From assembly GCA_963713855.1 (NCBI GenBank), contig OY970209.1, forward strand, positions 128,001 to 192,000: a stretch of 64,000 nt of DNA. The letters are read 5' to 3'. The notes beneath the pieces were generated by a model. It saw nothing but the letters and a program-made list of their open reading frames with translations, was not told the origin of the DNA and did no database searches. The stretch comes from an uncultured bacterium (GTDB lineage: Bacteria; Babelota; Babeliae; Babelales; Babelaceae). A program made the translations under genes and the position numbers. Positions 11,870-32,782 of this stretch are shown here, one piece after another (positions within the stretch are counted from its first letter, which is position 1; each line of letters starts with the position of its first letter).

Positions 11870-12617
11870 TTAAAATGAGCCTCTTTTTTCTTGTTTAATT
11901 TCTTTTTTTCTTAAAGTGGAATATCTAAAACAGGTCTTTCTGTCAAAATACGGATGTATCGTTTCAAATTGTAGATGTGCAAGGGCCGCTTTTATAAGAG
12001 GCGGAGTTTGCACGCCGTTGATATACTTTTCCAGATCGCTCATAAGCTCAGCAATTCGCGCTGGCGGAGGTAGAATAAGCCTACCAACACGTACCGCTCG
12101 CTTTCTATAGAAGCCGGGATCAGCTTCATCCTCGATGCCACCAAGAAGTGCCCTGTGCGCGTCCAATATGACTTGTGAATTGATGGATATATGTTCTTGT
12201 TGGATGCTATTAAGAGCACTCGTAAGAGCAGAAATATAATTCATAACAACTGACTACCTTTATCAGGCGTCGTAGATGATAGTCGCTACAAATATCAGAT
12301 ATAGTAGCGTAGATCTTTTCGATAGCAGACGAAAATACTGCTTCTTTAATAACGAATGCTTGTGCAAAATGATCTACGTTAGGCAAACGCTTTACCAGTT
12401 CATCAAGCCTTGTTACGCATATCAGAGCTTCATCATGAAGCGGCGATGGCTTAAAATCGAGCTCATCATAGGAAGGAAGATCGTATGGCACAAAGTGCTT
12501 TATCTCATTAATCACTTCATAAAAACCAGCCGTAGTACCTTGGCCCTCACCCTTACATAAAATAAGCAAACTTAAGACAACAAGCATCGTTCTTGTAATC
12601 ACAGCATATACTTTCAA
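11870..12617 (-). pseudogene. Fic-family protein, frameshifted and truncated
   Basis: Fic N-terminal part (KEAVFSSAIE) in ORF 12210-12617; Fic core (PGFYR..AALAHLQFETIHPYFD) in another frame; motif breaks off after HPYFD, with no GNGR. Confidence 0.8.
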
Positions 12618-15719: not shown

Positions 15720-15752
15720 GAGGCAGGGTTATGCACCCTGCCTCTTTTTTTT
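15720..15752 (+). terminator. Rho-independent terminator
   Basis: GAGGCAGGGT-tatgc-ACCCTGCCTC followed by a T-run. Confidence 0.8.
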
Positions 15753-15754
15753 GC

Positions 15755-15910
15755 CCTTTTTTGCACGAAGTGCTTGCATGTAACGTAAGACACGTGTCGT
15801 GTCTTACGTTTATTTACGGGCAACGCCCGACTGGCTTGAGGTGCAGGAGGCACATAAGCGCGGGACCCTCGCTTTATGTTCCCGCCGCTGAACGCGTAGT
15901 TCGCTTTTTT
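15755..15910 (+). repeat. Structured dispersed element, copy E1
   Basis: Aligns end to end with the reverse complement of 26341-26470; shares its core with 29865-29993 and 32332-32660. Confidence 0.85.
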
Positions 15911-16009
15911 TGTAGTTTGCTTTTTTTAAAGCCACTATTTTAACAGTTGCATGCTTACGACCTTCCTCTTATACTGTTAAAAAGGCCTTTACCAAAGGAC
16001 ATAACTACT

Positions 16010-16744
16010 GTGCAATCGATGGAACTTTTTGAGCAACATACCTGGCGACCCTTTGAGGCTATGGGTTTTACGCATTCTTTTTGGTCTCTCAACAGAGAAA
16101 CGATCCTTTACACATGGGTTGTCTTAGGCATACTTACAGTATTTGCCCTTTTTGTGCGCTATTTTATACGCAGGCCTGATACGATTCCTGGAACTATTGC
16201 GGAGACGTATGTACGTTCGTTCATGCAAATGATTACGCAGACGCTTGAGTATTTTGAGTATCGTTACTGTGCTTTTATCGGATCACTTTTTACGTTCATT
16301 TTCGTATGTAACGTGCTCATTCTTTTTCCCTACATGGAAGAGCCGACCAAGGATATTAACACGACGCTGGCACTTGCGATTATTTCATTTTTATACGTAC
16401 AGAAAGAGTCTATTCGTGCTCATGGTATTGGTGGCTATATTAAGGAATTTTTTAAGCCCTTTTTCATTTTTTTCCCACTAGAAGTACTTGGGCGGCTAGC
16501 GACTGTTGTATCACTTTCATTTCGCCTTTTTGGAAACATTTTTGGCGGCTCCATTATTAGCACCATGTGGAATTACGCTATATCAGGCTCGATTTTAGCT
16601 CAGATTGCTGGTACTTTGCTTGGTATAAACATTGTAATCATGCTTTTTTTTGGTATTTTTGAAGGCTTTATCCAGGCCTTTGTATTTTCTATTTTAAGCT
16701 TAACGTACCTTTCTATGGCAGTTTCTGAGGAGCAACATGAATGA
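16010..16744 (+). CDS. atpB: F0F1 ATP synthase subunit a
   Basis: PTKDINTTLALA, SLSFRLFGNI (conserved Arg), EGFIQAFVF; probable GTG start at 16010. Confidence 0.95.
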   Translation: MQSMELFEQHTWRPFEAMGFTHSFWSLNRETILYTWVVLGILTVFALFVRYFIRRPDTIPGTIAETYVRSFMQMITQTLEYFEYRYCAFIGSLFTFIFVCNVLILFPYMEEPTKDINTTLALAIISFLYVQKESIRAHGIGGYIKEFFKPFFIFFPLEVLGRLATVVSLSFRLFGNIFGGSIISTMWNYAISGSILAQIAGTLLGINIVIMLFFGIFEGFIQAFVFSILSLTYLSMAVSEEQHE

Positions 16745-17675
16745 CCTAGCCCACTCATTCACAGTCGCGTCATTGGTTGTTCTGCCTGCCTTAGGTGTAG
16801 GCATTGGCCAAGGTCGCGTGAACAAGGCTGCTGTTGAAGCGATTAACGAGCAGCCTGCTGTTGAAAGCGCTATTAGGCGATTAGCACTTATTTCACTCAC
16901 CTTAAGTGAAACGGCTGTACTTTTAGGCGTCGTTATGGCGAGTCTGATTCTTCGTGGCCCTGTTTTAAAAGCACCGCTTAATCTTTCTTACATCGGAATC
17001 ATCTTTGGCTGCGCTATTCCTGGCTTTATGGTCGGTCTTGTATCTGCGGGTCCTGGTATTGCTGCTCTAAAAGCTGCAGCGCGTCAGCCGCTTTTCATTG
17101 CCAAAATTACTCAACTTTTACTGATTAGCCAGGCCGTTATTCAAACTTCGACCATTTTTGGCTTTATTATAGCGCTCGTTTTACGAAGCCAGGCTTCGAC
17201 AGGAAACTCATCTGATGGCATACGCCTATGTATGAGTGGGGTATGCTTTGGTATTGCGGTTATCGGACCACTTTTGGGCCTAGGCTTTTTTACGAAAGCG
17301 GTGTGCACTGTTGCAGGCCTTAACAGAGCTATTTACCCGCGCCTTAGAACCTTTGCTTTTATAAGCCAAGCGCTTATAGAAGCACCGGTCGTTTTTTCGC
17401 TTATCATCGCACTTGTTTTAGCTATAAGCGGATCTAAAAGCCCCTCTATTGCAAGAAACGCAGCTTTTATAGCGGCAGCATTTATTATGGGACTTACAAC
17501 GCTTGCAACAGGCCTTAATTCAAGCCGCACTGCAACAACCACCGCCAAACTTCTTTCTAAATACCCTGATCAGTACCCTACCCTATCGAAAATGAGCATG
17601 GTCACCCAAACCTTCATCGACACTTCAGCAATTTACGGGCTTCTTGATTGCCTTATCATACTCTGGGCAAGCTAA
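16737..17675 (+). CDS. atpE: ATP synthase subunit c, four tandem fused hairpins (8 TM)
   Basis: Four ~79-aa repeats: GVGIGQG..EQP..E58; RQP..Q136; E215; KYP..D295; overlaps the atpB stop. Confidence 0.88.
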   Translation: MNDLAHSFTVASLVVLPALGVGIGQGRVNKAAVEAINEQPAVESAIRRLALISLTLSETAVLLGVVMASLILRGPVLKAPLNLSYIGIIFGCAIPGFMVGLVSAGPGIAALKAAARQPLFIAKITQLLLISQAVIQTSTIFGFIIALVLRSQASTGNSSDGIRLCMSGVCFGIAVIGPLLGLGFFTKAVCTVAGLNRAIYPRLRTFAFISQALIEAPVVFSLIIALVLAISGSKSPSIARNAAFIAAAFIMGLTTLATGLNSSRTATTTAKLLSKYPDQYPTLSKMSMVTQTFIDTSAIYGLLDCLIILWAS

Positions 17676-17753
17676 AAATCGGACATTAATCATTGATTTT
17701 TATCTATAATTTATTCTAATATAAAATTATAAGTTTTATTAAACGGAGAATGT

Positions 17754-17975
17754 ATGAAAAAGCACGTACTATGCTTGACGCTCTTTCTTTTCATGTCTTC
17801 TGGAGTGCAAGCACTTCATGAGGCATCTTACACTAAATCAAACTCATGGGCCACGGCCATTGAAAAATTACTGTCTCCACTCTTTCAAGAATTAATGCCC
17901 GCAGATGAAGTTACAAGTTGGATCTCATGGGCTAGCGGATTAGTCAAAAAAGTCGCATCAACAATAAGCGAATAA
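17754..17975 (+). CDS. Small secreted hypothetical protein
   Basis: GGAG RBS, MKKH..VQA signal peptide. Confidence 0.6.
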   Translation: MKKHVLCLTLFLFMSSGVQALHEASYTKSNSWATAIEKLLSPLFQELMPADEVTSWISWASGLVKKVASTISE

Positions 17976-18067
17976 AAGCTGCCCTTTGTTATTTTTAAAA
18001 AACGGTAAATCACACCAAATTGAACTGTCACCTAAATATTCCCAAGCAGATGTGCCAAAGCAAAATT

Positions 18068-19348
18068 TTAACTATTAATCAACTGAGCATTCTCTCCCGT
18101 GCGCCGATTGTGCAGGTATCTCTTGAGAATGAACCCGGAAACCACTGCCGCAGCAACAAAAACAACGGCAGCACCGGCTCCCACACTAACACCTATAACA
18201 CAATCCATATTACAACTCTTGTTACTGTTATTTCCATTATTGCTCTTGCCACAGCCGAATACAGTGACATCATTTGAATTCTCATTAGCAGTAGCAATAT
18301 ATAAGCTGCCTGGTGAAAAGGCGATTGAATTCGCGCCGCTCGACTCAGATGGTAAATTAGTCACTTCACTTTTGCTCAATCTACCTTCATTGTCTACGTC
18401 AAACAGTGCTATTGCGCTAGAAGAACCACCAATAACAATAGCCAGGTACATACCATTTGGTGAAAATGCCGCAGCAGTGAAATAGCCGTAAAAGGAAGGT
18501 AATGCGTATGAGGTGCCCTTACTCAGGGAGCCATCTGGCTCCACACTAAATATGGTTACGTCAGCTGAAAGAATATTAGCAGTAACAAGATACGAGCCGT
18601 TGGGTGAAAAAGATACGGAATTGGGAGTTTTAGAGCCGGAGGGTAATGCATATGATTTTCCTGTGCTCAGTTTGCCGTCTGGGCCGACACCAAAAATCGT
18701 CACATCGCGCGAATTCTGATTAGCGATAGCTAAAAGGGCACTATTTGGTGAAAATGCTATCGACGTAGGAGTAGCTGTCCCCGATGGTAATGCATATGAT
18801 ATTCCACCCGTTAGAATACCGCCAATTCCTACAGTAAACACGCTAATATTAGTTGAACCGATATTAGCAGTAGCAAGATATGAGCCATTGGGCGAAAATG
18901 CTAGGGCAATAGGTTGATAAGAACCAGAAGGCAGCGAATACGAAGCAGCAACTTTCGAGACACTCCCATCTCCTACAATATTAAACACTGTTACATCATT
19001 TGATTCACTATTGGCAGTAGCGAAATACCGGCTATCGGGCGCAAATGCTGCTGCACAAGGATTTTTAGAGCCCGACGGTAAAGGAAGCGAAATAGGTGTA
19101 CTTAGCACTCCAGACTCTTCGACGTTAAACACTGTTACATTATTTGAAACAGGAGGTGGAAAACTTCCTTTGTAAATAGTTGCTGTAACAAGGTATGAGC
19201 CATCGGGTGAATATACTACTGATGAAGGTGCTGAAGACCCGACTGGTAACGCATAGGAAGTGCCGCCATTATTTAGGGAGCAATCAGCATTGAGTCTTCC
19301 GTTTGTTGCCATTACTAGTAGCGTAGCAAGTAAAGTTGTGTTGTTCAT
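18068..19348 (-). CDS. 7-bladed beta-propeller (lactonase-like) surface protein with C-terminal TM anchor
   Basis: Seven ~45-aa repeats SY.LPSGS..P.S..FSPNG.YL.TAN..S.DVT.F; hydrophobic C-terminal helix followed by basic residues. Confidence 0.85.
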   Translation of the reverse strand: MNNTTLLATLLVMATNGRLNADCSLNNGGTSYALPVGSSAPSSVVYSPDGSYLVTATIYKGSFPPPVSNNVTVFNVEESGVLSTPISLPLPSGSKNPCAAAFAPDSRYFATANSESNDVTVFNIVGDGSVSKVAASYSLPSGSYQPIALAFSPNGSYLATANIGSTNISVFTVGIGGILTGGISYALPSGTATPTSIAFSPNSALLAIANQNSRDVTIFGVGPDGKLSTGKSYALPSGSKTPNSVSFSPNGSYLVTANILSADVTIFSVEPDGSLSKGTSYALPSFYGYFTAAAFSPNGMYLAIVIGGSSSAIALFDVDNEGRLSKSEVTNLPSESSGANSIAFSPGSLYIATANENSNDVTVFGCGKSNNGNNSNKSCNMDCVIGVSVGAGAAVVFVAAAVVSGFILKRYLHNRRTGENAQLINS

Positions 19349-19976
19349 CCTGTTCTTTCCCAGTAGATTACTTGACAGTTTTCACGGCACTATATAAGCA
19401 CTGTTGACTCTAATGGGGTAAAATTTTAATGTCAACAATCGCATACATCTAGATTGGGTATCACAAGAAAAAGAAATATGCCGCTATGGGTGAAGAATCT
19501 TCAGCTATGAAGCAAGTACCTGATAGCTAATGAAAGTAATTAGCCTTTAGACGCCGAACTCATACGCACATGACCTAAAATTTGATGAATGATTTTTCTG
19601 GCAATGTTTCAAATATAGTTCCTGCCTGTGCACCATATAACCCTTGATGAGCCCCAGCTATCGTTTGACCCAGGTAGTTAGCTCGTTGGTGGGTAGTCGA
19701 TGAGCGTGTTTTGAATGAACTTGAGGCTATGAAGGTGCAAAACATCTTCTAAGACCGTTTACTTAACGCTATTGTTTTTAGAAAGTTTAGCGAGATTTTG
19801 AATTTGTTAAAGGAGAAAACTAGTATAGAAAATATAAGCAGTCTGAAGTATTCCATTACTATTACAAAATTACAATGCTGAAATTTTAACCACTTTCACT
19901 ATTTTAGTACCAAATAAATAGTCGAAACATAAGTTCGAATAAAATGCGCGCACGCCTTGCGGCTCAGAATAAGCGA

Positions 19977-20699
19977 CTATGTCATACTGCGATCTTTCAA
20001 CACATAGAGTTTATGAACATCAATATATTTGATTACCTTGGAGTCAACAAACTCATAAACACTTAAACCGCGCGATATCATCGAGCGAACGGCTGAAGAG
20101 CTTATGGTGTTTTCAAAAGGCGAAGGTACGACAAACAAAGCATTTTGGTGCTTTTTTAATATTTCGTTATTGTTAATAAGCGCAGTAAGAGGAATACCAA
20201 AGCGAGGTATTACGAGTATCCCATGGTTATCATCCATCAGCGTTTCTTGATCCTCTAATGACCATAGCCCTGGGGTATTAAACGAGCTTAAAAGATCAGC
20301 CCCGCATACGAGAAAAACTCGGACGTCTCGTTTGTAACAGTCATTTAAACCTTTGCGTAAGTGCTCAATAACTGAAACTGTGGTCTGATACTTTTCTTGC
20401 TCAGCTTCCCAAGTATCAAGCGCTATCCAAGAAGAACGTTCTAGTGCTAATTGCGCCATAGCGATTCTATCAGCAGATGGAGCAAGCCCTTCTTTTTTGT
20501 AGGCGTCTGATACTGGAGATATAAAGCCACCTACAACGTATATATCGGGACGCACGCGACTCAAATGATTTTTACCACTTTCAAGCATTTCGAGGTGAAA
20601 AAGGGTAATGGGCGAAAAAGAGCCACAAGCTATAAGAACGGCGGGTTTTCGCGCATCCCATTCTAAGATTGGCGCCAATTTTGAGCAATCAATGGACAT
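19977..20699 (-). CDS. Nicotinamide/nicotinate mononucleotide adenylyltransferase, eukaryotic NMNAT type
   Basis: CGSFSPITLFH, SPVSDAYKK.GL, DTWE..Q, CGADLL.SF..PGLW, N.ISSS.VR. Confidence 0.9.
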   Translation of the reverse strand: MSIDCSKLAPILEWDARKPAVLIACGSFSPITLFHLEMLESGKNHLSRVRPDIYVVGGFISPVSDAYKKEGLAPSADRIAMAQLALERSSWIALDTWEAEQEKYQTTVSVIEHLRKGLNDCYKRDVRVFLVCGADLLSSFNTPGLWSLEDQETLMDDNHGILVIPRFGIPLTALINNNEILKKHQNALFVVPSPFENTISSSAVRSMISRGLSVYEFVDSKVIKYIDVHKLYVLKDRSMT

Positions 20700-20721
20700 A
20701 GTCTTTATAAATCTTTAGCTT

Positions 20722-21627
20722 TTAATAACCATATACCGACTTGCGATCAGCATCATTCATAAAGGTGACGTGCTTTTTAGCTTGTTCTAGAAGATCTGCT
20801 TCGTACTCAGAAAGCGCAACCTTAAAGCGTTCAGCACGAATAGTTGCTTCGATTTTTTTATAACGCTTTTCATCAGTCTCTTTATGACCTGTTTTTAAAG
20901 GTATTAAACGATCTTCGGTTTTTTCTTTAAGTTTAGTGACTTCAAAGCCACCAGCTGCGGGCTCGATAAAAACGATGTTACCGATGGCCTCATTTTTTAT
21001 AAACCCTTTATCTTTAGGCAAATCTCGAGCTTTAATCACAAACGGCTCACTCCACGCAATCGCTGATTTAAGCGTTTTATTTTTGATCGCGCTTTCAAAT
21101 TCAGTAGCGGGTAGCGTACTTGGCACAAAAGCGTTCAAGAGCGTAAACGTGGCTTCCTCGCGGTCTCCGTGCTTATCCCAATAAGCATCAACATCGCCCT
21201 CTTTTAGCGTTGGCATTTTATTTCTTAAGCGATAAGATTGTGCCTGCTCGATTTCTTGTTGACGCTTTAGCTGCTCTTTTCCTTCCTTGACGGTGTATCC
21301 GACAGCTTTAAAAATAGCCTCAATTTGCTCAAAACCACAATTATTTATCTTTTGCAGTTCTTTAAGAAATTTATCAACCTCTTCATCAGTCACCTTGATT
21401 GCAAGCGTGCGTGCATCAAAAGCCTTGAGCTGCTCAAGAACCATGTCGCGCAAAGTACGTTGTTCACCATTAAGGTTGGGGCGAATATCAAGGGTGGTAA
21501 TAATAACCTTTTCTTGCTGAGGACCAAAAATGATAGCTCGCGTCTGATTGAAAATGATATCTTCGCCAAATGCGCTGACTGACCACAACAATAAGCAGCC
21601 TAAAAACAGTAAAACTTTTGTGTGCAT
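20722..21627 (-). CDS. SurA-like periplasmic chaperone
   Basis: Signal peptide; IKVTDEEVDKFL..N SurA N-domain pattern. Confidence 0.65.
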   Translation of the reverse strand: MHTKVLLFLGCLLLWSVSAFGEDIIFNQTRAIIFGPQQEKVIITTLDIRPNLNGEQRTLRDMVLEQLKAFDARTLAIKVTDEEVDKFLKELQKINNCGFEQIEAIFKAVGYTVKEGKEQLKRQQEIEQAQSYRLRNKMPTLKEGDVDAYWDKHGDREEATFTLLNAFVPSTLPATEFESAIKNKTLKSAIAWSEPFVIKARDLPKDKGFIKNEAIGNIVFIEPAAGGFEVTKLKEKTEDRLIPLKTGHKETDEKRYKKIEATIRAERFKVALSEYEADLLEQAKKHVTFMNDADRKSVYGY

Positions 21628-21648
21628 AAAAGGTCCCCCTCGAAAGCC

Positions 21649-21678
21649 AGCGAGTAAAAGAGTGATCCTTTACTCGCT
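21649..21678. terminator. Intergenic stem-loop
   Basis: AGCGAGTAAA...TTTACTCGCT. Confidence 0.5.
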
Positions 21679-21690
21679 AGACTAATTTGT

Positions 21691-22743
21691 TTAGCCAACC
21701 TGCGGCTTTATCGGTTGTGGTAAAGCAGTAGGTTGCGTTGACTGTTCTACAGCCTTCTTTTTACGTTTTTGAACGTAATCCTTATTAACTACTAGTTTAT
21801 ATTTTTCTTTAAGTTCGGCCAGCTTTTTCTCATGCAGCTCATTAAATTTCTTATTTTTAATGACGTGTTGGACTGCTTCTTTGACAGACTCGAAATCGGC
21901 ATACTTAGGCTCTTGGCGGCTTAATAGCTCTATGACACGATACTTGTCATCTGAGCCTTTTACGATTATTATCGTCGGCAAGGTCGCTTTATTTTCAAGA
22001 ATGACGTCTTTTACCGTCTCGTCTAAAAAGCTGCTTCTATTAACAAGGCCATAGTCAACCACGTGCTTATTAGCTTCTTTAGCTACTTGAGCAAAAGTAC
22101 TTGCGCGGGCTTTTTGAGCAAGCTCACCAGCTTCTTTCTCATCTGATACCTCAAAACCCTCAGCCTTTATACCACCAGCCGTTATTAGAAAGGGAGGCTG
22201 CTGAAGCATAGGTTCGGTACTGCGCTCCTGATAGAACTTCTGAGCTTCAGCATCACTGACCGTGACTTCTTTAAGAACCTGATTTTCAAAGGCCCTTAAA
22301 GCCAGGTCTCCATCAACTGCCTCGTGAATCCGAGAAGCATTGCGGACGTATTCAGGCTGATGGTCAAGGCCCGTATCATGTACCCAGTGCATCATAAGCT
22401 CTTTTATGGCCTTGCCCTCGATAATGCGTCCAAATATTTCATCTTGTTGGTCCTCCGGAATAAGAGGCATAAGCTCTTTTATAGAAGGCTCCGTCTGCAT
22501 CATCAGCAGGATATCTCTTTCAGTATCTTCTCCAGTTACTACTGGTTTTTCGTTTAAAGAAACGACCGTTTCACGAAGCAAAACAGGATCATATCCTTCA
22601 AGTTTTACGTCTTCATGCGCGTGAGGGCAACCGCACGAAGCATTTTTGACCATTTTCCACGGCCAGTAATCACAACCAGGTAGCAGCGCAATTGCTGACA
22701 GTAACAGTACATGACTTAGAAAATAACGTGAACGCTTTATCAT
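21691..22743 (-). CDS. PrsA/PpiC-like lipoprotein chaperone (degenerate parvulin)
   Basis: Lipobox LLPGC, VTVSDAEAQKFY, FAQVAKE, FESVKE; probable start MIKRS at 22743. Confidence 0.7.
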   Translation of the reverse strand: MIKRSRYFLSHVLLLSAIALLPGCDYWPWKMVKNASCGCPHAHEDVKLEGYDPVLLRETVVSLNEKPVVTGEDTERDILLMMQTEPSIKELMPLIPEDQQDEIFGRIIEGKAIKELMMHWVHDTGLDHQPEYVRNASRIHEAVDGDLALRAFENQVLKEVTVSDAEAQKFYQERSTEPMLQQPPFLITAGGIKAEGFEVSDEKEAGELAQKARASTFAQVAKEANKHVVDYGLVNRSSFLDETVKDVILENKATLPTIIIVKGSDDKYRVIELLSRQEPKYADFESVKEAVQHVIKNKKFNELHEKKLAELKEKYKLVVNKDYVQKRKKKAVEQSTQPTALPQPIKPQVG

Positions 22744-22827
22744 AAGTGCCTCAATGTTTATTGAATAATAGGTCCTGTTTACGCTGTGTAGCGTATCACA
22801 GAACTTTACATACTGCAAAAGCGGTAG

Positions 22828-23475
22828 CTAGACCGCTCTACAAGCAACAACAGCAGAAAGGCTATTAAGCTCTAAATGTTCTAATGCCTCTGCTGCTGCT
22901 CGAAGCGTTGACCCAGTCGTTACAAGGTCATCAACCAAGATTATGCTTTTCGATTGCCAGTGCGCTCGCATGGCATTACTCATAAAAGCACCCGAACTAT
23001 TTTCATGCCTTTGTAAAATCGTCAAACCCGACTGAAAATCTGTCTCTTTTGGCCGTAAAAGTAAGGAAACTACAGGTATCTGCCACGCTTTTGAAAGCAC
23101 ATGGGCTATGGTAGAAGCCTGGTTAAAACCCCTTGCAGCATACCGTTTCCAATGAAGTGGAATCGGCACTAAAGCATCAGCTTTCTGGAGCTCTAATTGC
23201 TCGGCCATTAAAATACCAAGATGCTCTGACGCCGCTTGCACCCCAGAATGTTTTGCAAGAACAAAAGTTTTTAAAGGCTCTTTATATGCTCCAAGAGAAG
23301 ATACCTGCATCACCTTACCGCTAGAAATCGGGATGCAAAACGGAAGCGTGCCTTCTATAGCGTTCTTACATACTCCACATAAAGGCGTATCCTTTTTTGT
23401 CAACGCGTGACAATAAAAACAGACATAAGGCAAAAAAGCGTCCCTAAAACAGGCAACTAGTGATTCAAGCATCAT
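22828..23475 (-). CDS. comF: ComF-family competence protein (zinc ribbon + PRTase)
   Basis: CFYC..LCGVC, VPIPLH..RGFNQA, ILVDDLVTTGST; start MMLES overlaps the restored lspA stop. Confidence 0.88.
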   Translation of the reverse strand: MMLESLVACFRDAFLPYVCFYCHALTKKDTPLCGVCKNAIEGTLPFCIPISSGKVMQVSSLGAYKEPLKTFVLAKHSGVQAASEHLGILMAEQLELQKADALVPIPLHWKRYAARGFNQASTIAHVLSKAWQIPVVSLLLRPKETDFQSGLTILQRHENSSGAFMSNAMRAHWQSKSIILVDDLVTTGSTLRAAAEALEHLELNSLSAVVACRAV

Positions 23476-23930
23476 TAAAATGGGTTGAAAAAAGCATAAC
23501 AAGAGCACCGACCACAATAGCAACATCAGCTGCATTAAAAAGCGTGGGAAATTGCCATTGGCCAAGAGCCACGCTGCAAAAAATCCACCACGGCACCATA
23601 CCAAACTCTGTCGATCAAGTTACTCACAGCCCCTGCAAGAATAAGGACCTCGCCAAAGAGAGTTTTGTGCGTTTTATAGCGCTCATACGCATGGACGCAT
23701 AAAGCGAGTATAATAAACGCCAAACCAATCGAGAGCAAAAACCAGGAGAGCCACGTCCTTGCTTGAAACATCCCCCAAGAAATGCCTTTGTTATAAAGAA
23801 GCTCGCATGTCAGGCCCGGAAATAATGTACGAGGAGAGGCACAGTAATAAATAGCCGCCAGTTTTGATAATCGGTCAATAAGGAAAATACTGATAAAAAG
23901 TAACAAGTACCTTTCTATCTGGCTCTTCAT
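23465..23930 (-). pseudogene. lspA: Lipoprotein signal peptidase II with an apparent frameshift in a T6 run
   Basis: DRLSK, NKGISWG, GAVSNLIDR, AVVDF in one frame; FPTLFNAADVAIVVG..NDA* (stop 23467-23465) in a shifted frame; break at the A6 run 23578-23583. Confidence 0.85.
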
Positions 23931-26242
23931 CGTATCGTTGCTCCTTTTTGACGTAATCGCTCAGAGACCCTACTACTTACCTCGTCGATTTCGTCTTTGG
24001 TTAACGTCTTATCAGCATCACACAGCCTGTAGCGTAATGTTATCGCGCGCTGGGCGAACCACTCCGAACGCTCATAATAATCAACAAGCTGTACATGCCT
24101 AATACGTTCATCCTCATTATATATCGCCCGTTCAAGCTCGCTCACGGTCATTTCTACTGGTATAAATATGCTGACATCAAGCTCAGTGCAAGGATACTTT
24201 AGCAATTGCTGTACCTGAACTCTCGGTTTTGCAAATTGTTTAAGAAAAGTACCATCGAGCTCAGCAATACAGGTAAAACCCGCAATCTCTTCTACTTTTG
24301 TAGATCCGATACCAACATAGCCTACATGCTGACGATCACAAAATAACGCAGCTATTTGGTTTGGGCTATACCAAAAAGGTATCTCTCCCGTAGGCTTTAC
24401 CCACTCAATAGATGCTCCAATAAGGTCGAATAAGGAAGAGACAGCTGCTTTAAATTCATAAAAATTGGGTTGCTGCGCACTGTGCCATATAAAGCTGAGT
24501 GAAGACCCTTCACGTATGCTCTCTTTTTCCAAAGACCATAGACGATTCCATTCAAAAAACCGTACATCGTGCGCCTGTGTTTTATTCATTGTTACAGCTT
24601 TAATAAGGTGCGGAACGAGCGAAGCGATGAGGCGCCGCGCGTTTTGCGATACTGGATTATTAAGCTCAATGTCTTGATCGGGTTTAAAGCCCAGTACACG
24701 TAAAAAATCTTCATCGTAAAAAGGGTAACTTGCTATTTCATGCATTCCAAGAGAAAACGCGCAATGATTTTTTAAAGCTCGTATACGATTTACTACATGA
24801 TTGTCAACAGGACGCATTAAGCGCGCTGGAACCGTTGCATGAATATTGCTGTAGCCAATTAATCGAGCAACTTCTTCAACGGCATCTTCGCGTAAGCGAA
24901 TATCGCCTTGCCTAAAAGTAGGTACCAAAATTGTATACTCTATTCCTGAAGAAAGAAATTTCTCTTGAACGCCAAATCCCAACTTAGAAAGCGTTGCGCG
25001 AACATCTTCTGGCAAAAGCGCGCTACCAATTTTTTTAGTAATATACTCATGCGTTACGGTAATGGTGCGTTCAACGGCGGGAAGGCCCAAAGAAACAATG
25101 TCCGGTGAACTATCAGCTTTAATACCCCACGCTTTAATAAGGTATAAAAAGCGCATAAGAGCAGTAACATTTTGATTCGGATCAAGACCTTTTTCAAAGC
25201 GCGACGAAGCTTCTGTTCTCTTTTTGTGTTCAATCGAACTGCGCCGTATGGCTACGGGACGAAAATGCGCACCTTCAACGACAATCCTGACACTTGAAGT
25301 GCGTACAGCAGCATAAGATCCCCCCATAACGCCTGCGAGCGCAAGCGGCTTTGTTGAATCTGCTATAACACAATCTTTTTCGTTAAGCTCAAGCACGGTA
25401 CCATCGAGTAATTCGATACGCTCTGAAGGCTTTGCCATGCGTGCTTTCAACTGAGCTTCCTTAATAGCAAGGCCATCAAAAGCATGCAGTGGTTGGCCAA
25501 GATCATACATCACATAATTGGTAGCATCGACGATTGCATTGACGGGTTTACCTCCAACCAGCACCAGGCGCTGTGCCACAAAAGGTATCGATGACACATT
25601 ACTAACGTGATTTAACGTGAGAGCTGCAAATCGATCGCATACTGGTTGAGCGTCAATGCGCAGCGTAAGACCGTCAATTACGCCAGTCTGCTCATAATTT
25701 TTAACTAAACGGGAAGCAATAAGTTGGTCTTCAGGCACGAGAGTTACTGAAAGCAATGCGGCAATTTCACGAGCAAACCCGCGGTGACCCCATAAATCAG
25801 GTCTGTGCGTAAGAGACTTATTGTCGATTGTTATAATGTAGTCCTCTTTTTGCAAAGAGGCCTTCCATAAGCCTTCTTTGTCCGATGCGGGAACATAAAG
25901 AGCCGGCATCAGGCCTTCTTTTTCGCCGTGAAAATCGAGCACAGTAGCATACGAAACTTTTTCACCTTCGCGGCGCACTAAATAAAGACCGTCCAAAACT
26001 GCATCAGGACGTAATGGCAAGCGTACCTCTTTTTGCATTTCCGGCATAAAAAAGAGTGCTTGACCCTTCTCTATGCTTTTAAGCTCAGCAAGAGCAAAGG
26101 CGCTTAAATCAAAAGAAACTTTACAATACGAATCAATTTCTGCTGTAGAGGTACTCAGTTTCTGAATGAGCTTATCTACGGACACATCCTGTAACCGCAC
26201 ATCAAGAATATGGTCAAAAATCCACGCAAGGGATAATTTCAT
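23927..26242 (-). CDS. pheT: Phenylalanine--tRNA ligase beta subunit
   Basis: THRPDLWGHRGFAREIAA, GQPLHAFD, SSRFEKG, DAVEEVARLIGY, C-terminal ferredoxin-fold anticodon domain. Confidence 0.95.
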   Translation of the reverse strand: MKLSLAWIFDHILDVRLQDVSVDKLIQKLSTSTAEIDSYCKVSFDLSAFALAELKSIEKGQALFFMPEMQKEVRLPLRPDAVLDGLYLVRREGEKVSYATVLDFHGEKEGLMPALYVPASDKEGLWKASLQKEDYIITIDNKSLTHRPDLWGHRGFAREIAALLSVTLVPEDQLIASRLVKNYEQTGVIDGLTLRIDAQPVCDRFAALTLNHVSNVSSIPFVAQRLVLVGGKPVNAIVDATNYVMYDLGQPLHAFDGLAIKEAQLKARMAKPSERIELLDGTVLELNEKDCVIADSTKPLALAGVMGGSYAAVRTSSVRIVVEGAHFRPVAIRRSSIEHKKRTEASSRFEKGLDPNQNVTALMRFLYLIKAWGIKADSSPDIVSLGLPAVERTITVTHEYITKKIGSALLPEDVRATLSKLGFGVQEKFLSSGIEYTILVPTFRQGDIRLREDAVEEVARLIGYSNIHATVPARLMRPVDNHVVNRIRALKNHCAFSLGMHEIASYPFYDEDFLRVLGFKPDQDIELNNPVSQNARRLIASLVPHLIKAVTMNKTQAHDVRFFEWNRLWSLEKESIREGSSLSFIWHSAQQPNFYEFKAAVSSLFDLIGASIEWVKPTGEIPFWYSPNQIAALFCDRQHVGYVGIGSTKVEEIAGFTCIAELDGTFLKQFAKPRVQVQQLLKYPCTELDVSIFIPVEMTVSELERAIYNEDERIRHVQLVDYYERSEWFAQRAITLRYRLCDADKTLTKDEIDEVSSRVSERLRQKGATIR

Positions 26243-26340
26243 GCTTTAATACCCTTTATTACGCTCTAAAAAGCTCATTTATATACAGAATACGCAAAAA
26301 GCACAAAAGCAGCAACTTGATCAACCTTAGAGAACTTTAA

Positions 26341-26470
26341 AAAAACGAACTACGCGTTCAGCGGAAGGAGGCTAGCCTCCTTCACCTCAAGCAAGTATGG
26401 CGTTGCCAGTAGATAAATTTAAGACACGGCACGTGTCTTAAATTGCATGCAGCACTTCGTGCAAAAAAGG
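26341..26470 (-). repeat. Structured dispersed element, copy E2
   Basis: Reverse complement matches E1 with compensatory stem changes. Confidence 0.85.
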
Positions 26471-26705
26471 ATAGCGAAAACCTAGAGCACATGACTTACG
26501 CTCTGAGGCGTTTGGATGTAATCAATTACTTAGCTCTTTTAAGAATGAGCTCTCCCAATTTTCTACTAGTGCTCACGTTCAGCTCATGAGCTTTTTTCAG
26601 TTCACCCTTCTCCCAAAAGAATTGCCGTACTAAACACGTGCTTTTTAAAAGCCTATGAAAATCGATCAGCACGTGTTATGATTTTCACAAACCTTAGGAT
26701 TTAAT

Positions 26706-27875
26706 ATGTTTTTAGAAAGAGATATAGCAGACCGCGTACGAAGCGGGGCGAGGAAAATGCCTATAGTAGCCATCATTGGCCCGCGACAATCTGGCAAAAG
26801 TATGCTTGTAAAAGAGTTATTCAAGAATCATAGGTATATAGATATGCAAGATCCTGAGCTTTCGGATTATGCAAACAAGGATCCTAAGGGTTTTTTAAGC
26901 ACTTTCAATACTGAGCATGGTCTAATTCTTGATGAGATACACTATGCTCCCAAGTTGCTTTCTCAATTAAAAATGGAGGTGGAAAAAAATTCGCGGCCGG
27001 GGTATTACATTCTTTTAGCACCGCATGATTTTTTTCTTGATGAAATTTTAAGCGAGTCTCTTGCAGGGATCATGTACCTCTATATATTACTTCCTCTTTC
27101 TATAAGTGAGCTTAAAAAATCACGGCTACTACTCGAGTGTGCGGAGGAACAGCTATTACATGGTTTCTACCCTCGTGTTTACGAATCAGCTATCGATACA
27201 CGTGAGTATTACGAACAGTATATCTCAGTGCGCATTGAGAGAGATATAAGGATGGTAAAAAATTTTGAAAAGAGCGTAGCGTTTAGAAGGTTTATACAGC
27301 TTTGCGCTCTTCGTATTGGCTCACCGATCAATTTCAGCGAGCTTGCACGGGATGCACGTATCAGCATTAATACTGCCAAGAGTTGGCTTTCTCTCCTTCA
27401 AACAAGCTTTACAGTATTTTTCCTTCCGTCTTACTATAAGAACCTGTCTCGAAGGATTATCAAGTCGCCAAAGCTGTATTTTTATGATGTTGGGCTTGCT
27501 TTAATGTTCCTGAACGCCAACAAGGAAACGTTTACAAAAAAACGGGACCTTTATGGTTCATTGTTTGAAAACATGCTCATTGCTGATGCTTTAAAAAATT
27601 GTCACAACCGCGGACTTGATTCGAGGTTATCATTTTTTAGGGATACGAATCAAAATGAGATCGACCTCATAATCGAATCAGCGAGCGTAACTGTACCGGT
27701 GGATATCACGGAAATAAAGAGCGTAGACAGTGTTTCTGGCACCTTAACATGGTTTATAAAACAAACAGGTGGTGATCAAAAACCCCTAGTTTTCTACGGC
27801 GGTGATCAAGAACTAGAGCTTTCAGGTTCCAAAGCTATGCCATGGAACTATATAGACTCGACGCTTTTTGTGTGA
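26706..27875 (+). CDS. AAA_14 ATPase with DUF4143 domain
   Basis: GPRQSGKS, ILDE, KSPKLYFYDVGL, FEN, EIDLII. Confidence 0.88.
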   Translation: MFLERDIADRVRSGARKMPIVAIIGPRQSGKSMLVKELFKNHRYIDMQDPELSDYANKDPKGFLSTFNTEHGLILDEIHYAPKLLSQLKMEVEKNSRPGYYILLAPHDFFLDEILSESLAGIMYLYILLPLSISELKKSRLLLECAEEQLLHGFYPRVYESAIDTREYYEQYISVRIERDIRMVKNFEKSVAFRRFIQLCALRIGSPINFSELARDARISINTAKSWLSLLQTSFTVFFLPSYYKNLSRRIIKSPKLYFYDVGLALMFLNANKETFTKKRDLYGSLFENMLIADALKNCHNRGLDSRLSFFRDTNQNEIDLIIESASVTVPVDITEIKSVDSVSGTLTWFIKQTGGDQKPLVFYGGDQELELSGSKAMPWNYIDSTLFV

Positions 27876-27963
27876 GCATTCGGGGCTTTAAATCTCGGAT
27901 TTGGGCTGTTAAAAAAGCGTATAAGTTATAGTATACTGGAAGCATAATTTAACTGAGTCCATT

Positions 27964-28884
27964 ATGGAAAAAATCATCCTTTATTACAAGTATGTACCTA
28001 TCGAGCATACGGACGTTATTGCCCTGTGGCAAAAAGAGCTTTGCCAAAAACTTGACCTTAAGGGGCGGATCATTATAGCTCCGGAAGGGATTAATGGGAC
28101 ACTTGGAGGCCAAGAATACGCTATAAAAGACTATCAAGCTGTTATGGCCGCTCATCCGCTTTTTGGCGACATAGATTTTAAAAGTAGCTCAGGCTGTCGT
28201 GATGATTTTCCTCGCCTACAAGTTTCTGTAAAAAAAGAGATTGTGCGGCTTGGTATAAGTCCTGAAACTGTTAGATCAGAAAACGCGGCCGTTCACTTAA
28301 GCCCCCAGAAAGCGCATAAGCTTATAGCAAAGAAAGATAAGCATCTTGTTATCTTCGATGCTCGTAATGTCTATGAATCTGATATTGGTGCCTTTGAGGG
28401 AGCGATAACTCCTGATATTAAAACCTTTAGAGAACTTCCGGGCTATATTGACGCTCATCTTGAGCTTTTTAAGGACAAGGATGTTCTTATGTACTGCACA
28501 GGTGGTGTTCGGTGTGAACGGGCATCTGCATATCTTGCTACTAAGAATGTAGCGCGCAGTATTACGCAAATAGCTGGAGGGATACATCGCTACTTAGAGG
28601 AATATCCGGAAGGCTTTTTTAAAGGTAAAAATTTTGTTTTTGACGGCCGTATGGCTCTTAAGGCCACCGATGACGTTCTTGGGCGCTGTAAAGAGTGTAA
28701 TCGACCATATGATATTCATAAGCCTTGTTCATATACCCATTGCCATGGACTTATATTGTTGTGCCCGGACTGTGCGAAAGTATCAGATAGCACCTGTAGT
28801 CCTTCGTGCAGCAGCCTAATTAGCCAAGATGGCACCAAAAAAAGGCCTGACACTCAAAAAACCGTTGGAGCCCATGGAATATGA
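27964..28884 (+). CDS. trhO: Rhodanese-domain tRNA uridine(34) hydroxylase (UPF0176)
   Basis: LYYKY, KGRIIIAPEGINGT, YCTGGVRCE, NFVFDGR. Confidence 0.88.
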   Translation: MEKIILYYKYVPIEHTDVIALWQKELCQKLDLKGRIIIAPEGINGTLGGQEYAIKDYQAVMAAHPLFGDIDFKSSSGCRDDFPRLQVSVKKEIVRLGISPETVRSENAAVHLSPQKAHKLIAKKDKHLVIFDARNVYESDIGAFEGAITPDIKTFRELPGYIDAHLELFKDKDVLMYCTGGVRCERASAYLATKNVARSITQIAGGIHRYLEEYPEGFFKGKNFVFDGRMALKATDDVLGRCKECNRPYDIHKPCSYTHCHGLILLCPDCAKVSDSTCSPSCSSLISQDGTKKRPDTQKTVGAHGI

Positions 28885-29822
28885 GTATCTGCATACAGCA
28901 CAATGTTTCTTTAGCAGAAAAGACGTGGTTTAGGACGGGTGGACCTGCCCGCTTTTACACGGAGCCGCGTTCGGCGGAAGAATTTCGGCGAGCGCTGACG
29001 CACGCAAAGCACTATGATTTACCGCTTTTCATTTTGGGAGAGGGAGCGAATGTCCTTATAAGTGATGAGGGGTTTTCGGGGCTTGTCATTAAACCTGGCA
29101 TTACCTCGCTTTCACACTTTTATACCGAGGAAGGAAGCTACGTAAAAGCGGGGGCTGGTGTAGCTTTTAGGGATTTAATCAGTTATTGCCTGGAACATGA
29201 GCTTATTGGTCTTGAAGAATTTAGTGGGATACCTGGAACTGTTGGCGGCTCAGTGTTTATTAACATACACTATTTTGAGTTTCTTTTAAGTTCTTTTTTG
29301 ACGCATGGGACGGTCATTGAAAAAGCGACAGGTTCTATTATATCTGTTGATCGTCCTTGGTTTAATTTTTCCTATAACTATTCGACGCTTCAGGAGGGCA
29401 AGCATTATCTTGTTGATGCTACATTTGCTTTAAAAAAGGGTTCACCTTTCGATGCTTTTTACGCCAAAGGGCGAAGTGATGAAATTGTTAGGCACCGGAT
29501 GCGTAGGTATCCGCTTGAAAGAACATGTGGGAGTTTTTTTAGAAACTTTTTTGAGCATGAGCTTCTAGAGAGCAAACACCCGCATAAAATCGTCCACGTT
29601 GCCTACTATTTCGATACCTTAGGCTTTAAGGGACAACTTAGCAGTGGTCATGCTTTTGTATCTCACAAGCATGCAAACATGATTGTAACGAACCCCCAAG
29701 CATCATCTAAAGATGTTATTAATCTTGCTCGCACGATGCAAACGCTGGTTCACCAAAATTTTGGTATTACTCCGCAACCGGAATGCGTACTTTTAGGCTT
29801 TAAAGAGCATCCGCTGCTATAA
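28881..29822 (+). CDS. murB: UDP-N-acetylmuramate dehydrogenase
   Basis: GGPA, LGEGAN, GIPGTVGG, CGSFFRN, KHANMIV. Confidence 0.93.
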   Translation: MSICIQHNVSLAEKTWFRTGGPARFYTEPRSAEEFRRALTHAKHYDLPLFILGEGANVLISDEGFSGLVIKPGITSLSHFYTEEGSYVKAGAGVAFRDLISYCLEHELIGLEEFSGIPGTVGGSVFINIHYFEFLLSSFLTHGTVIEKATGSIISVDRPWFNFSYNYSTLQEGKHYLVDATFALKKGSPFDAFYAKGRSDEIVRHRMRRYPLERTCGSFFRNFFEHELLESKHPHKIVHVAYYFDTLGFKGQLSSGHAFVSHKHANMIVTNPQASSKDVINLARTMQTLVHQNFGITPQPECVLLGFKEHPLL

Positions 29823-29864
29823 AAGCGAACTATTAGTTATTATTATTTGTTCTCCAGAGAATCT

Positions 29865-29993
29865 ATCCGCCGAGGGCGGATTGCTATTGCCTCAAGAACA
29901 AATGTTCTTGAGGTATAATTTCAAGATTTAAATCAACGGGTGCAGGGCGCAGCACTGCCGCTCTACGCGGAGTAGCGCCCGCTGCGTAAGCGC
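29865..29993 (+). repeat. Structured dispersed element, copy E3
   Basis: Two hairpins, then GGTGCAG..CTGCCGCT-CTAC-GCGGA-GTAG and CGCT-GCGTA-AGCG. Confidence 0.7.
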
Positions 29994-30007
29994 GACTTTA
30001 GCTTTTT

Positions 30008-30469
30008 TTAAAATTCGGCCCATGATCCATCCTCGTACGCGGCGCGACTTACGTAGGTATGTGCGGCGATGGTTGTAGAAATGCGGTAGAAGCATGCCCC
30101 TTCTTTATTACTCAGGTAAACGGAGCCTGCATCGGTGTGTCCACTTGGGTAAAAAACTACTCGATCGTGGCTAAACGTAAGAGCTCTAGAAGATGGTGCT
30201 TTAAACATCACTGGATCTTGTAGGTGGTGTATCAGCCCATCTTTGACCTTATAGGCGTTTTGGTTTTTTAAAAACGTGAGCGTGACCTCTTTGTTGCTCG
30301 AGACTGCCTCCTGCTGGAGGGAAAGAAAAATGAGATAGAGCCTGTTGCAAGCCATTCGCACACGTAGTTCACCAAAAACTCGAAACGACACGGAGGTGCA
30401 AAACGCCAAAAAGCTAACAAGAACGCAAACAAGGACAAGCTCTAGGAGCATGAACCCTTTTCGCGCCAT
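30008..30469 (-). CDS. Minor pilin/pseudopilin (GspH/FimT-like)
   Basis: RKG^FMLLELVLV prepilin motif; VVFYPSG..AGSVYL. Confidence 0.8.
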   Translation of the reverse strand: MARKGFMLLELVLVCVLVSFLAFCTSVSFRVFGELRVRMACNRLYLIFLSLQQEAVSSNKEVTLTFLKNQNAYKVKDGLIHHLQDPVMFKAPSSRALTFSHDRVVFYPSGHTDAGSVYLSNKEGACFYRISTTIAAHTYVSRAAYEDGSWAEF

Positions 30470-32184
30470 TATACTTCGACGTCCTGGGAGGTAGTAGCGG
30501 CCACAGATAGAACTTCCTCAATTGTTGTAAGTCCCATCTTAATTTTTCGAATACCGTCATCGAGGAGTAGGGTCATTCCTTCTTTCATGGCCTCTTTTTG
30601 TATTACTGAGGCATCGGCTCTTTCAACGGTAAGTCGTGCGATAGGATTGGTCATAGGCATTACTTCAAAGATAGCCATACGTCCTTTGTATCCCGTATTA
30701 GAGCATTCCTCGCAGCCTACGGCCTCATAAAACTTGATCGTCTTAGCCTCAGATGCGGATATACCTAACCGTTTTAATAAGTCTGGATCTGGCTTATATT
30801 CCTTTTTACAATACGGGCAGAGTTTACGAACAAGGCGCTGTGCAATGACGCACGTAAGCGTTGATGCAATTAAGAAGGGCTCTATTCCCATATCAAGAAG
30901 TCGAGTAATGCTTGCTGCAGCGCTATTCGTGTGTAGGGTACTTAACACAAGGTGTCCGGTCAAAGCGGATTGTATAGCAATCTGTGCGGTTTCTCGGTCA
31001 CGAGTTTCACCGATCATGATTATATCGGGGTCTTGACGCAAAATGGACCTAAGAGCGGCTGCGAATGTTAGACCTATGCTCTCACGTACTTGCACTTGCC
31101 CGACACCCTGCATTTGGTACTCGACCGGGTCTTCAACGGTGATTATATTGACTCCGGGCTTATTGAGCCTTCCTAAAATTGCGTAGAGCGTTGTCGTTTT
31201 ACCAGAACCTGTTGGACCTGTAATAAGAACGATGCCATTTGGCTGCTCGATGCTGTAAAGCACTCCTTTATAATCATGCTCGCTAAAGCCAAGATCTTTA
31301 AGGTCGGCAAAGCTTTTGCTTTTATCTAAAAGTCGCATTACGATACGCTCACCAAAGGTGACGGGTAGAACGGATACACGTATGTCGATTGGTTTATCGG
31401 CTATCTTTATCTGAATACGTCCATCTTGCGGTTGGCGTTTTTCAGCAATGTTAAGGTTTGCCATGATTTTAATACGCGACGTAATAGCTGCTTGTGCACG
31501 CTTTGGGGGGGACATGACTGGATACAAAACACCATCGATACGATAGCGCACCTGTAGCTCTTTTTCAAAAGGCTCGATATGTATGTCGGACGCATCGCGC
31601 TTTACTGCTTGATAGAGGATATGATTAACCAGCTTTATGATAGGCGCCTCATTAGCCATACCGAGTATGTCTTCTTCCTCAATCGCGCCAAGGTCCATCT
31701 CGGATGCAAGCTCTTTTTCCTCTTCAAGCTCCGCTATCATCTGCTTTGTACCTTCTAGGGGGTAATAGCGATTAATAGCATCAATGATGGTTGATCGCGC
31801 TGCGACTGCTCGAGTCGTATTCCCACCAAGTAGCATATTCAATTCGTCTGCTGGCTGATAATTAAGAGGATCAGTAAGCGCAATAACGACTGAACCGTCA
31901 GGGTTTCGAACCGGTATAATGCTATTTTCTCGTAAAAACTTTAAGGGGATTCTTCCAAGAAGTTCAGCATCCGCCATCTTATCAGTTATGGCTTCAAGAT
32001 AGGGCAATTGAAATTTTAAAGCTCGCGCAGAGGCTAAATCTTTGTCGCTGACCAAATTATTGGCGGTTAAGTAAGCCTCAAGCGTCAGCCCAGCAGCCTG
32101 ACTTTCTTTACGGTACTCATCATACCGCTCTTTCGTAAGCGCTCCCTGCTCACGCAAGATCTCCCCTAGAGTTTTTTCTACCAT
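30469..32184 (-). CDS. gspE: Type II secretion/type IV pilus assembly ATPase (GspE/PilB)
   Basis: ASDIHIEP, GPTGSGKTTT, EDPVE, LRQDPD, STLHTN, CxxC..CxxC; probable start MVEKT at 32184. Confidence 0.93.
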   Translation of the reverse strand: MVEKTLGEILREQGALTKERYDEYRKESQAAGLTLEAYLTANNLVSDKDLASARALKFQLPYLEAITDKMADAELLGRIPLKFLRENSIIPVRNPDGSVVIALTDPLNYQPADELNMLLGGNTTRAVAARSTIIDAINRYYPLEGTKQMIAELEEEKELASEMDLGAIEEEDILGMANEAPIIKLVNHILYQAVKRDASDIHIEPFEKELQVRYRIDGVLYPVMSPPKRAQAAITSRIKIMANLNIAEKRQPQDGRIQIKIADKPIDIRVSVLPVTFGERIVMRLLDKSKSFADLKDLGFSEHDYKGVLYSIEQPNGIVLITGPTGSGKTTTLYAILGRLNKPGVNIITVEDPVEYQMQGVGQVQVRESIGLTFAAALRSILRQDPDIIMIGETRDRETAQIAIQSALTGHLVLSTLHTNSAAASITRLLDMGIEPFLIASTLTCVIAQRLVRKLCPYCKKEYKPDPDLLKRLGISASEAKTIKFYEAVGCEECSNTGYKGRMAIFEVMPMTNPIARLTVERADASVIQKEAMKEGMTLLLDDGIRKIKMGLTTIEEVLSVAATTSQDVEV

Positions 32185-32331
32185 ACATTCTCCCCAAAAT
32201 CTTTCACAAAGTAGAATATCATAGCACATGCTATTTGCTAGAGCACGCCAATAATCGTAAACCTGTGTTCAAAAAAATTATATTCTCTTATAAATATATT
32301 ACAAAAGTCATTACATTTATAGTCCTTGTTC

Positions 32332-32660
32332 TGTCCCCAAATAAAAAATCAGGGAAGTAAGCGCCTACGCGGCGTGCGGCAGGACATTGTCCTGCACCTG
32401 TTGCTTGTTTTGCATGTTACACATGCTTATTGTCTATGAGATAGACCGGAAAATCCGGTCTATCTCATTAGGCACATTTACTAAGAAAGGGAATTCCCTT
32501 TCTTAGTAAATTAAACAACCATAAAAAGTTTAAGAAGGGTGTGGGGCAAGGGTCATAAAGCCTGAGTCCAGGCTTATGAGCCCTTTCATAAGAGTCAATA
32601 CTATGACTCTTATGATGCCGCGTAGGCGCCTCTTTCTCTTTGACTTACTATTTAGGGACA
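32332..32660. mobile_element. MITE/REP-like fold-back element, copy E4
   Basis: Imperfect ~42-bp terminal inverted repeats (TGTCCC[C/T]AAATA...GCGCCTACGCGGC), six internal hairpins, 36-bp perfect palindrome at 32476-32511, no ORF. Confidence 0.7.
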
Positions 32661-32782
32661 CTCTTTAGAAACAAAAAACGAGCCAAATAACGGCCTACTT
32701 GCTTGATTATCCAATGTATACTAACCTAAAAGAAGAAAGCTACTAATAATCAGCATTTAATCTTTTTAACCAGAAATCACCT

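Follow-up and report, generated by a model that had tools for sequence, protein, structure and literature searches.

Repetitive extragenic palindromes (REPs) and REPINs are defined by one of the tetranucleotides GTAG and GTGG, 0-2 nt 5' of the hairpin foot, and a tnpA-REP gene flanked by the repeat constitutes a REPtron (PMC6006769). Among insertion sequences (ISs), IS200 and IS91 typically show a strong replication-orientation bias, which is largely missing in IS5 groups (PMC3971601). REP-like hairpin repeats for which no transposase is known are found in many bacteria. Here we describe a family of such repeats in an uncultured bacterium of the Babelaceae (GCA_963713855.1, contig OY970209.1), four members of which, E1 to E4, lie within a stretch of 64,000 nt (the window, C1:128001-192000 of a single-contig genome of 1.52 Mb, 41% GC and 91% completeness, hereafter G000). 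Its best reading is a REPIN-like, non-autonomous single-strand cassette nested in a MITE (miniature inverted-repeat transposable element) derived from IS5.

E1 to E4 are true members of a 24-copy hairpin repeat family. Common to all four is a unit of ~40 nt, consisting of GGT, a 7-bp stem beginning GCAGG (hairpin 1, the GGTGCAGG hairpin) and, after a CGCYN linker, a 4-bp stem whose loop is GCRNA (hairpin 2). The core pattern of this unit matched the genome 16 times and a reversed-genome control once, with 18 matches against 3 when the loop was included, and a 12-mer of the unit gave 42 matches against 2. A covariance model built from 24 units returned 34 matches in the genome (150 of 288 candidates scored), of which 33 fell inside the 24 loci and one, a weak match, outside. 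In an alignment of 24 units drawn from several genomes, 97.7% of cells are paired, both sides have changed in 6 of 11 pairs and the covariation score is 0.310, compared to 0.091 when shuffled (0 of 500 shuffles reaching 0.310) and no more than 0.058 when slid. The pattern that retrieved most of these units fixes part of stem 1, so that the free evidence of covariation comes mainly from stem 2 and from the inner pairs of the first stem; related units, moreover, do not count as independent. Template-switch repair can also yield compensatory changes in perfect palindromes, and covariation is therefore by itself no proof of selection. Searches of Rfam returned no match in the window at gathering score or E-value level, and sub-threshold chance matches only at seven loci. 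In a literature search whose scope stopped short of subscription papers, ISfinder and supplements, the last including the REP tables of PMC6006769, which could list the unit, neither the motif nor a comparable repeat from this phylum was found described.

The 24 loci comprise 20 two-ended copies like E4, one partial copy and three one-ended copies without a shell, these being E1, E2 and E3. Whole two-ended copies are about 280-370 nt long, encode no transposase and fold into one long panhandle. An outward-facing unit stands at both ends of an interior of ~210-310 nt, the bounding 12-nt inverted repeat of which is hairpin 2, and the second-end unit was recovered by the model despite its absence from the training set. 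Spacers between convergent genes hold 10 of the 20 two-ended copies, compared to 233 of 1222 adjacent gene pairs overall, and the 3' ends of 17 genes come to within 42 nt of an interior. The inverted repeat is flanked on the outside by two dissimilar tails of 35-40 nt, frequently ending CTAG. A pattern derived from these tails matched an 814-nt IS5 element in a congener (G001; 56% mean protein identity to G000) at G001:C2:1252022, which encodes DUF4096 and DDE_Tnp_1 pieces and which we take to belong to the IS427 subgroup. The left tail of E4 (tail B) is identical to the left end of this element at 21 of 22 nt, and the left tails of 16 of 20 copies score above the 99th control percentile. The match of the other tail (tail A) is weaker: an ungapped 36-nt test against the right end of the same element placed 9 of 20 copies above the 99th control percentile, with 24/36 identities for the family majority and 23/36 for E4 (99th percentile of controls 19). 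Read in frame, tail A gives L-S-L-stop-L-T-I-stop in E4 and I-x-L-W-x-T-I-stop in better copies, alongside I-L-L-W-L-K-N-stop in the IS; it resembles the last codons of the transposase and likely represents them. Related IS5 transposases occur in 32 of 261 genomes of the phylum, and tblastn found none in G000; among 30 IS5 loci from the phylum, 11 start with TAGGTTCTGT and none contains the unit. Many shell ends carry TA or CTAG, and TA surrounds the related IS5 elements, the nearest genome, G001, being too distant for empty sites to be aligned.

Within this asymmetric shell the interior lies one way in 13 of the two-ended copies and the other way in 7. Likeness is 86.8% among interior cores (86% within the unpaired A-rich linker itself), compared to 63% and 49% for the two tails; pairwise global alignment gives 84% for the interior and 68% and 61% for the tails. 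The identity of cores is uncorrelated with that of tails: copies 1197393 and 1503951 share an identical 137-nt core in opposite orientation, with tails 49/55% alike. On a tree of cores, itself without a strongly supported branch, orientation requires 6 changes against a shuffled mean of 6.0 and so is unclustered. Since core and tail identities are uncorrelated, identical cores stand opposed and E1-E3 have no IS5 ends, the ends and the interior are not inherited as one unit; they have separate histories, and the interiors are younger than the shells. Orientation follows replication: in 18 of 20 interiors (p=4e-4) the GGTGCAGG strand lies opposite the leading strand, a count which excludes the partial copy at 578152 and E1-E3 and becomes 21/24 with these counted in, E4 and E2 being among the exceptions. 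For shell direction the count is 13 of 20 (p=0.26), and the shells show no such bias. The interior's orientation tracks the replichore between convergent genes as well, and such a pattern would not be expected from assembly error.

In the congener G001, ~40 related elements carry the same unit, outward pairs and tandem copies of hairpin 2 without IS5 tails (53 model matches), and a second relative, G052, yields 50 model matches, including outward pairs 350-550 nt apart, such that pairs of units without a shell occur in both. Because these copies are dispersed in G001 and G052, the cassette spreads without IS5 ends. None of the four syntenic junctions tested from G000 sites (including E1 and E4), and none of the six from G001 sites, is occupied in the other genome. 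At the E1 junction, G001 has a terminator-like hairpin without an element, in a spacer of 89 nt compared to 235 nt in G000. The exact pattern occurs in 3 of 261 phylum genomes, and the model adds one to two weak matches in each of 4 more of 149 genomes of the order. The initial annotation, made from the letters of the window, had proposed a structure-selected mobile repeat, and the 24 loci, the emptiness of all 10 syntenic junctions, the patchy distribution and the absence of an Rfam match support it. Polarity in G001 has the same direction and is weaker (23/33, p=0.035, by local skew and with at least one probable false match). A directional cassette is thus found at non-orthologous sites in related genomes and, in G000, between the left and right ends of an IS5 element, where it replaces the transposase gene.

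Several observations from the relatives stand apart from this argument. One G001 copy (L044, G001:C2:439075-439900) is broken after an inner hairpin, where a short stretch resembling what we take to be the 5' end of a group IIC intron precedes an IS3-type remnant. A reverse transcriptase (RT) remnant lies at G001:C1:278592. At L148 (G001:C1:296557-296762) a frameshifted small GIY-YIG gene sits beside palindromes of another repeat class, and one module of that class is similar to inserts seen in certain G001 copies. A loose 13-mer, run over 41 genomes, was too unspecific.

Beyond the phylum, the unit occurs at no fewer than 128 loci in GTDB genomes, and among the matches listed it is multi-copy in Binatia-type, Clostridia, Planctomycetota and Chloroflexaceae records. 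In IMG/VR, 36 of 44 unit loci share one context (judged by eye), with model scores of 29-40 bits where tested; at one such locus, which was verified, the unit stands between a replication-region gene and a portal/terminase pair. From gene order, this context is read as that of P2-like prophages. At L313 and 35 similar loci, one full unit lies between a ~308-aa gene with no Pfam match and the portal gene, presumably where a cos region would be expected. Two contigs of Mu-like prophages (L321 and L342) carry two to three units, including an inverted pair, near gp27 and terminase genes. A relaxed pattern for hairpin 1 alone found at least 126 viral loci, against 28 for a stem-swapped control. Among the matches listed, 79 flanked hairpin 1 loci include 20 Zot-cluster, 9 microvirus and 8 diversity-generating retroelement (DGR) loci, as raw counts unweighted for the make-up of IMG/VR, and 4 of the other 42 carry further inovirus-type genes. 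Hairpin 1 is on the coding strand in 9 of 9 microvirus loci and on the same strand as the gene in 18 of 20 Zot loci (by eye). In the DGR loci it closely follows the variable repeat, and template adenines account for 120 of the 130 mismatches between repeats; in the eight phage DGRs (L507, L523, L534, L538, L546, L565, L573 and L575) this GGGTGCAGGGG hairpin has variable, non-GRNA loops. Neither the exact E4 core nor the IS end had a match in viral scans, plasmid and phage blastn gave weak or single matches only, and of 13 loci from a metagenome scan, 11 were coding or otherwise chance, two had a related hairpin context and none was a close relative.

The core, then, is probably a DNA parasite without genes of its own, mobile in single-stranded form. 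We consider it fairly probable that some enzyme moves this hairpin cassette, or copies it anew, as single-stranded DNA (ssDNA) at the replication fork, the cassette being present in either orientation between decayed IS5 ends. In such a scheme an IS5 transposase, since lost, would have dispersed the composite, as a MITE, to TA sites, many of them at the 3' ends of genes. Interiors would later have been replaced or inverted at the 12-nt inverted repeat (hairpin 2) via a single-stranded state, with the direction of the fork fixing their orientation. Hairpin 1 would be read on ssDNA by a protein of the host or a phage, possibly in second-strand priming, since the same hairpin is found in microviruses and inoviruses, on the coding strand, and just 3' of DGR variable repeats. 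A bolder proposition, which we regard as unlikely, is that the GGTGCAGG hairpin is an undescribed and widely shared ssDNA signal of microviruses, inoviruses and DGRs, for example a site of second-strand priming, captured by a gene-less repeat that homes from one landing pad to another on one strand of the fork by means of host or phage proteins only. If true, this would establish a class of enzyme-free, replication-polarised mobile cassettes, here riding in IS5 shells.

A number of results weigh against movement of the cassette as a single strand within an IS5 shell. No partner enzyme was found among seven families (Y1_Tnp, GIY-YIG, DUF559, RT, TnpB, IS110 and Y2). The Y1 transposase (PF01797) is absent from G000, at 91% completeness, and from two of five unit-rich genomes (G262 and G263), and the Y1 genes of G001 belong to plain IS200-type elements whose ends are unlike the unit. 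Across 88 loci with Y1, DUF559, GIY-YIG, RT or TnpB genes, the unit showed no consistent flanking: model matches stood hundreds of bases from the genes next to them, which were of UvrC length or of other kinds, and never formed a tight pair around a small nuclease. The Y2 search returned no match anywhere, controls also being blank, and is hence uninformative. Neighbour clustering of 549 open reading frames (ORFs) from 84 loci showed no recurring mobile-element protein in the 25 largest clusters (by eye), and Pfam on 25 non-orthologous G001 neighbours identified one IS3-type remnant. The GTAG/GTGG guide 0-2 nt 5' of the hairpin foot is absent from the unit alignment, in which GGT precedes stem 1, CGCY precedes stem 2 and GTAG occurs solely in the loop and 3' arm. 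As regards the shell, a first, local 26-nt test of tail A against the right end of the IS was passed by 0 of 20 copies, and neither an empty shell nor an empty allele with target duplication was seen. As regards polarity, the origin (395,551) and terminus (1,196,910) were placed by cumulative GC skew alone, a dnaA motif search for the origin giving no match, and in a Binatia chromosome (G265) GC skew was too noisy to assign replichores. The ssDNA-phage and DGR loci score 17-25 bits and match essentially hairpin 1, with loops that differ from the GRNA consensus of PMC3240598; since hairpin 2 is mostly absent there, the viral and DGR link covers half the unit. Finally, gene conversion with loss of one orientation gives the same patterns without a mobile single strand. 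Separately, G000 has four TnpB-domain matches at three loci (L475, L479, L483 and L486) in a genome with no Y1 transposase.

Gene conversion of this kind underlies the main rival explanation, an ordinary IS5 MITE with a captured REP-like doublet, in which host recombination homogenises interiors, template switching at the inverted repeat flips them and copies whose orientation is unfavourable at the fork are lost. We hold this to be doubtful. In its favour, it accounts for the IS5 ends, for the lack of empty shells and for an element that folds as one long panhandle, it has no need of an unknown enzyme, and less conversion would be expected at the edges of a repeat than at its centre. Gene conversion, inversion and loss of orientation fit G000 but leave the spread without shells unexplained, namely cassettes at ~40 non-orthologous sites in G001 and the 50 model matches in G052, and the like polarity of G001 also speaks against it. 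A second rival invokes an IS110-family recombinase that targets hairpin 2 and also integrates or inverts the cassette there. IS110 elements are known to insert in REPs (PMC12288879), and in G052 one such element lies inside hairpin 2 of one copy (L682:502-535, about 2090-2140) with four identical bases at both junctions, at what in G000 is the border of interior and shell. Insertion into a repeat is evidence of targeting, not of mobilisation, and with no IS110 in G000 or G263, and the unit at one of five IS110 loci, we judge this very improbable. Least probable of all is a domesticated RNA element (an mRNA 3' stabiliser, terminator or small RNA) under selection for RNA structure, to which the convergent spacers and nearby gene 3' ends, the T runs ending E1-E3 and RNA folding z-scores of -2.1 to -4.1 might point, against the lack of a position common to genomes, an orientation that follows the replichore even between convergent genes, many 3-nt loops, no Rfam match and a terminator scan that did not call the terminal units; the non-coding RNA alternative of the initial annotation accordingly gained no support in this analysis.

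Features of the E1 to E4 loci (positions are those of the window)
Feature	Position	Strand	Remarks
Intrinsic-terminator-like hairpin and T run	15720..15744	+	3' of 474-aa Mur-ligase-like gene; host sequence outside the repeat, with E1 directly after
E1, one-ended, shell-less	15755..15910	+	Three upstream hairpins; terminal unit with ~30-nt insert; flanking T runs
E2, one-ended, shell-less	26341..26470	-	Sister of E1; upstream of pheT
E3, one-ended, shell-less	29865..29993	+	Two tandem GCRNA hairpins at end, a form common in congener G001
E4 shell tail B	32328..32361	+	Left end of IS5-family element; outer TA/CTAG decayed in E4
E4 terminal two-hairpin unit	32361..32400	-	GGTGCAGG hairpin, linker and GCGTA hairpin; 55 bits, in training set
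E4 interior	32362..32628	-	267-nt hairpin cassette within perfect 12-nt inverted repeat; 'reverse' relative to shell
E4 shell tail A	32629..32668	+	Likely last transposase codons, stop and right end of IS5-family element

Within the window, the coordinates of the four elements and the stems quoted in the initial annotation are both present in the sequence, the pairing being imperfect in so far as stem 1 has one mismatch each in E1 and E3. Its upstream hairpins common to all four reduce to homology between E1 and E2 (86.6% over 97 nt), those of E3 and E4 being unalignable with them, and the layout it gave for E4 missed that the core is on the minus strand of a two-ended element with an outer shell. 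The family is denser in the window (4 loci in 17 kb) than in the genome as a whole (24 loci in 1.52 Mb). Its statement that the window encodes no cognate enzyme agrees with a Pfam scan of 60 window ORFs, which found no transposase-like or retroelement protein family. Overall its reading is supported; it overlooked the shell derived from IS5, the REPIN-like build with two ends, the occurrence of the interior in two orientations and its polarity relative to replication. Covariance model matches are at 15838-15903 in E1 (27 bits), 26346-26388 in E2 (46.5 bits, E2 being in the training set) and 29937-29976 and 29977-29992 in E3. DNA folding z-scores against shuffles are -4.8, -4.9, -4.1 and -14.1 for E1 to E4, respectively. 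The surrounding genes have housekeeping and pilus functions, unrelated to one another, and no full-length copies of E1/E2 or E3 exist elsewhere in the genome. All three shell-less copies of G000 are clustered within 14 kb (window 15755-29993), with E3 like the G001 form; the cluster may reflect local hopping or a block acquired from a relative. Two neighbouring genes merit mention: that after atpB (window 16737-17675) encodes 312 aa (314 aa in its G001 orthologue) with a match to ATP synthase subunit c at residues 10-71 only, a putative c subunit with a long conserved extension or fusion, and at 11870-12617 on the minus strand Fic_N and Fic occur in two overlapping ORFs, as a split or frameshifted Fic gene.

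Compared with described systems, the family resembles REPs and bacterial interspersed mosaic elements (BIMEs, or REPINs) with their REP-associated tyrosine transposase (RAYT, TnpA-REP), which are likewise short extragenic hairpins occurring as single, tandem and inverted doublets in many copies, in convergent spacers and as targets of IS110 (PMC6006769; bioRxiv 2021.07.10.451892). It differs in its two-hairpin unit with a GCRNA loop, in a spacer of 200-450 nt where BIMEs were assembled at 150 nt or less, in being nested in IS5 ends and in the recurrence of the same unit across several phyla and in phages; it works like a REPIN or BIME, yet lacks two defining features, the guide tetranucleotide and a REPtron, none of the latter having been found. 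MITECca01 of Cardinium, with an IS982 parent, is similarly under 350 nt, without a transposase, intergenic and lineage-specific in a host-associated lineage and, like the shell described here, retains the ends and a little inner sequence of its parental IS (PMC9769881), whereas the present family has a foreign hairpin interior, also found without IS ends, in both orientations and younger than the ends, with no parent transposase left in G000. Correia elements of Neisseria are MITEs reported to invert as a whole (PMC10969869), whilst here the interior alone differs in orientation within asymmetric ends, with a replichore bias. IS200/IS605 and IS91 share hairpin ends and a strong replication-orientation bias (PMC3971601), but this family has no linked HUH gene, and its ends are unlike those of the IS200-type elements of G001. 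DGR target hairpins or cruciforms (PMC3240598) and the intergenic hairpins of microviruses (PMC9865509) occupy the positions at which hairpin 1 was found in 8 DGR and 9 microvirus loci; as published, the DGR hairpin has a GRNA loop and does not depend on its stem sequence, whereas here the stem sequence is conserved, the loop varies and hairpin 2 is mostly missing. The complementary-strand signal is treated as expected but uncertified (PMC9865509), and a concrete candidate for it in microviruses and inoviruses is the hairpin found on their coding strand. What other such repeats do not have is this family's internal control, an older asymmetric shell against which the orientation and age of the core can be read; as movement or flipping of the core is independent of the shell and follows replication, its route of spread is testable. 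The ingredients are familiar; unexpected to the specialist are the way in which they are nested, an interior that is independent and polarised, and a hairpin that single-strand replicons share.

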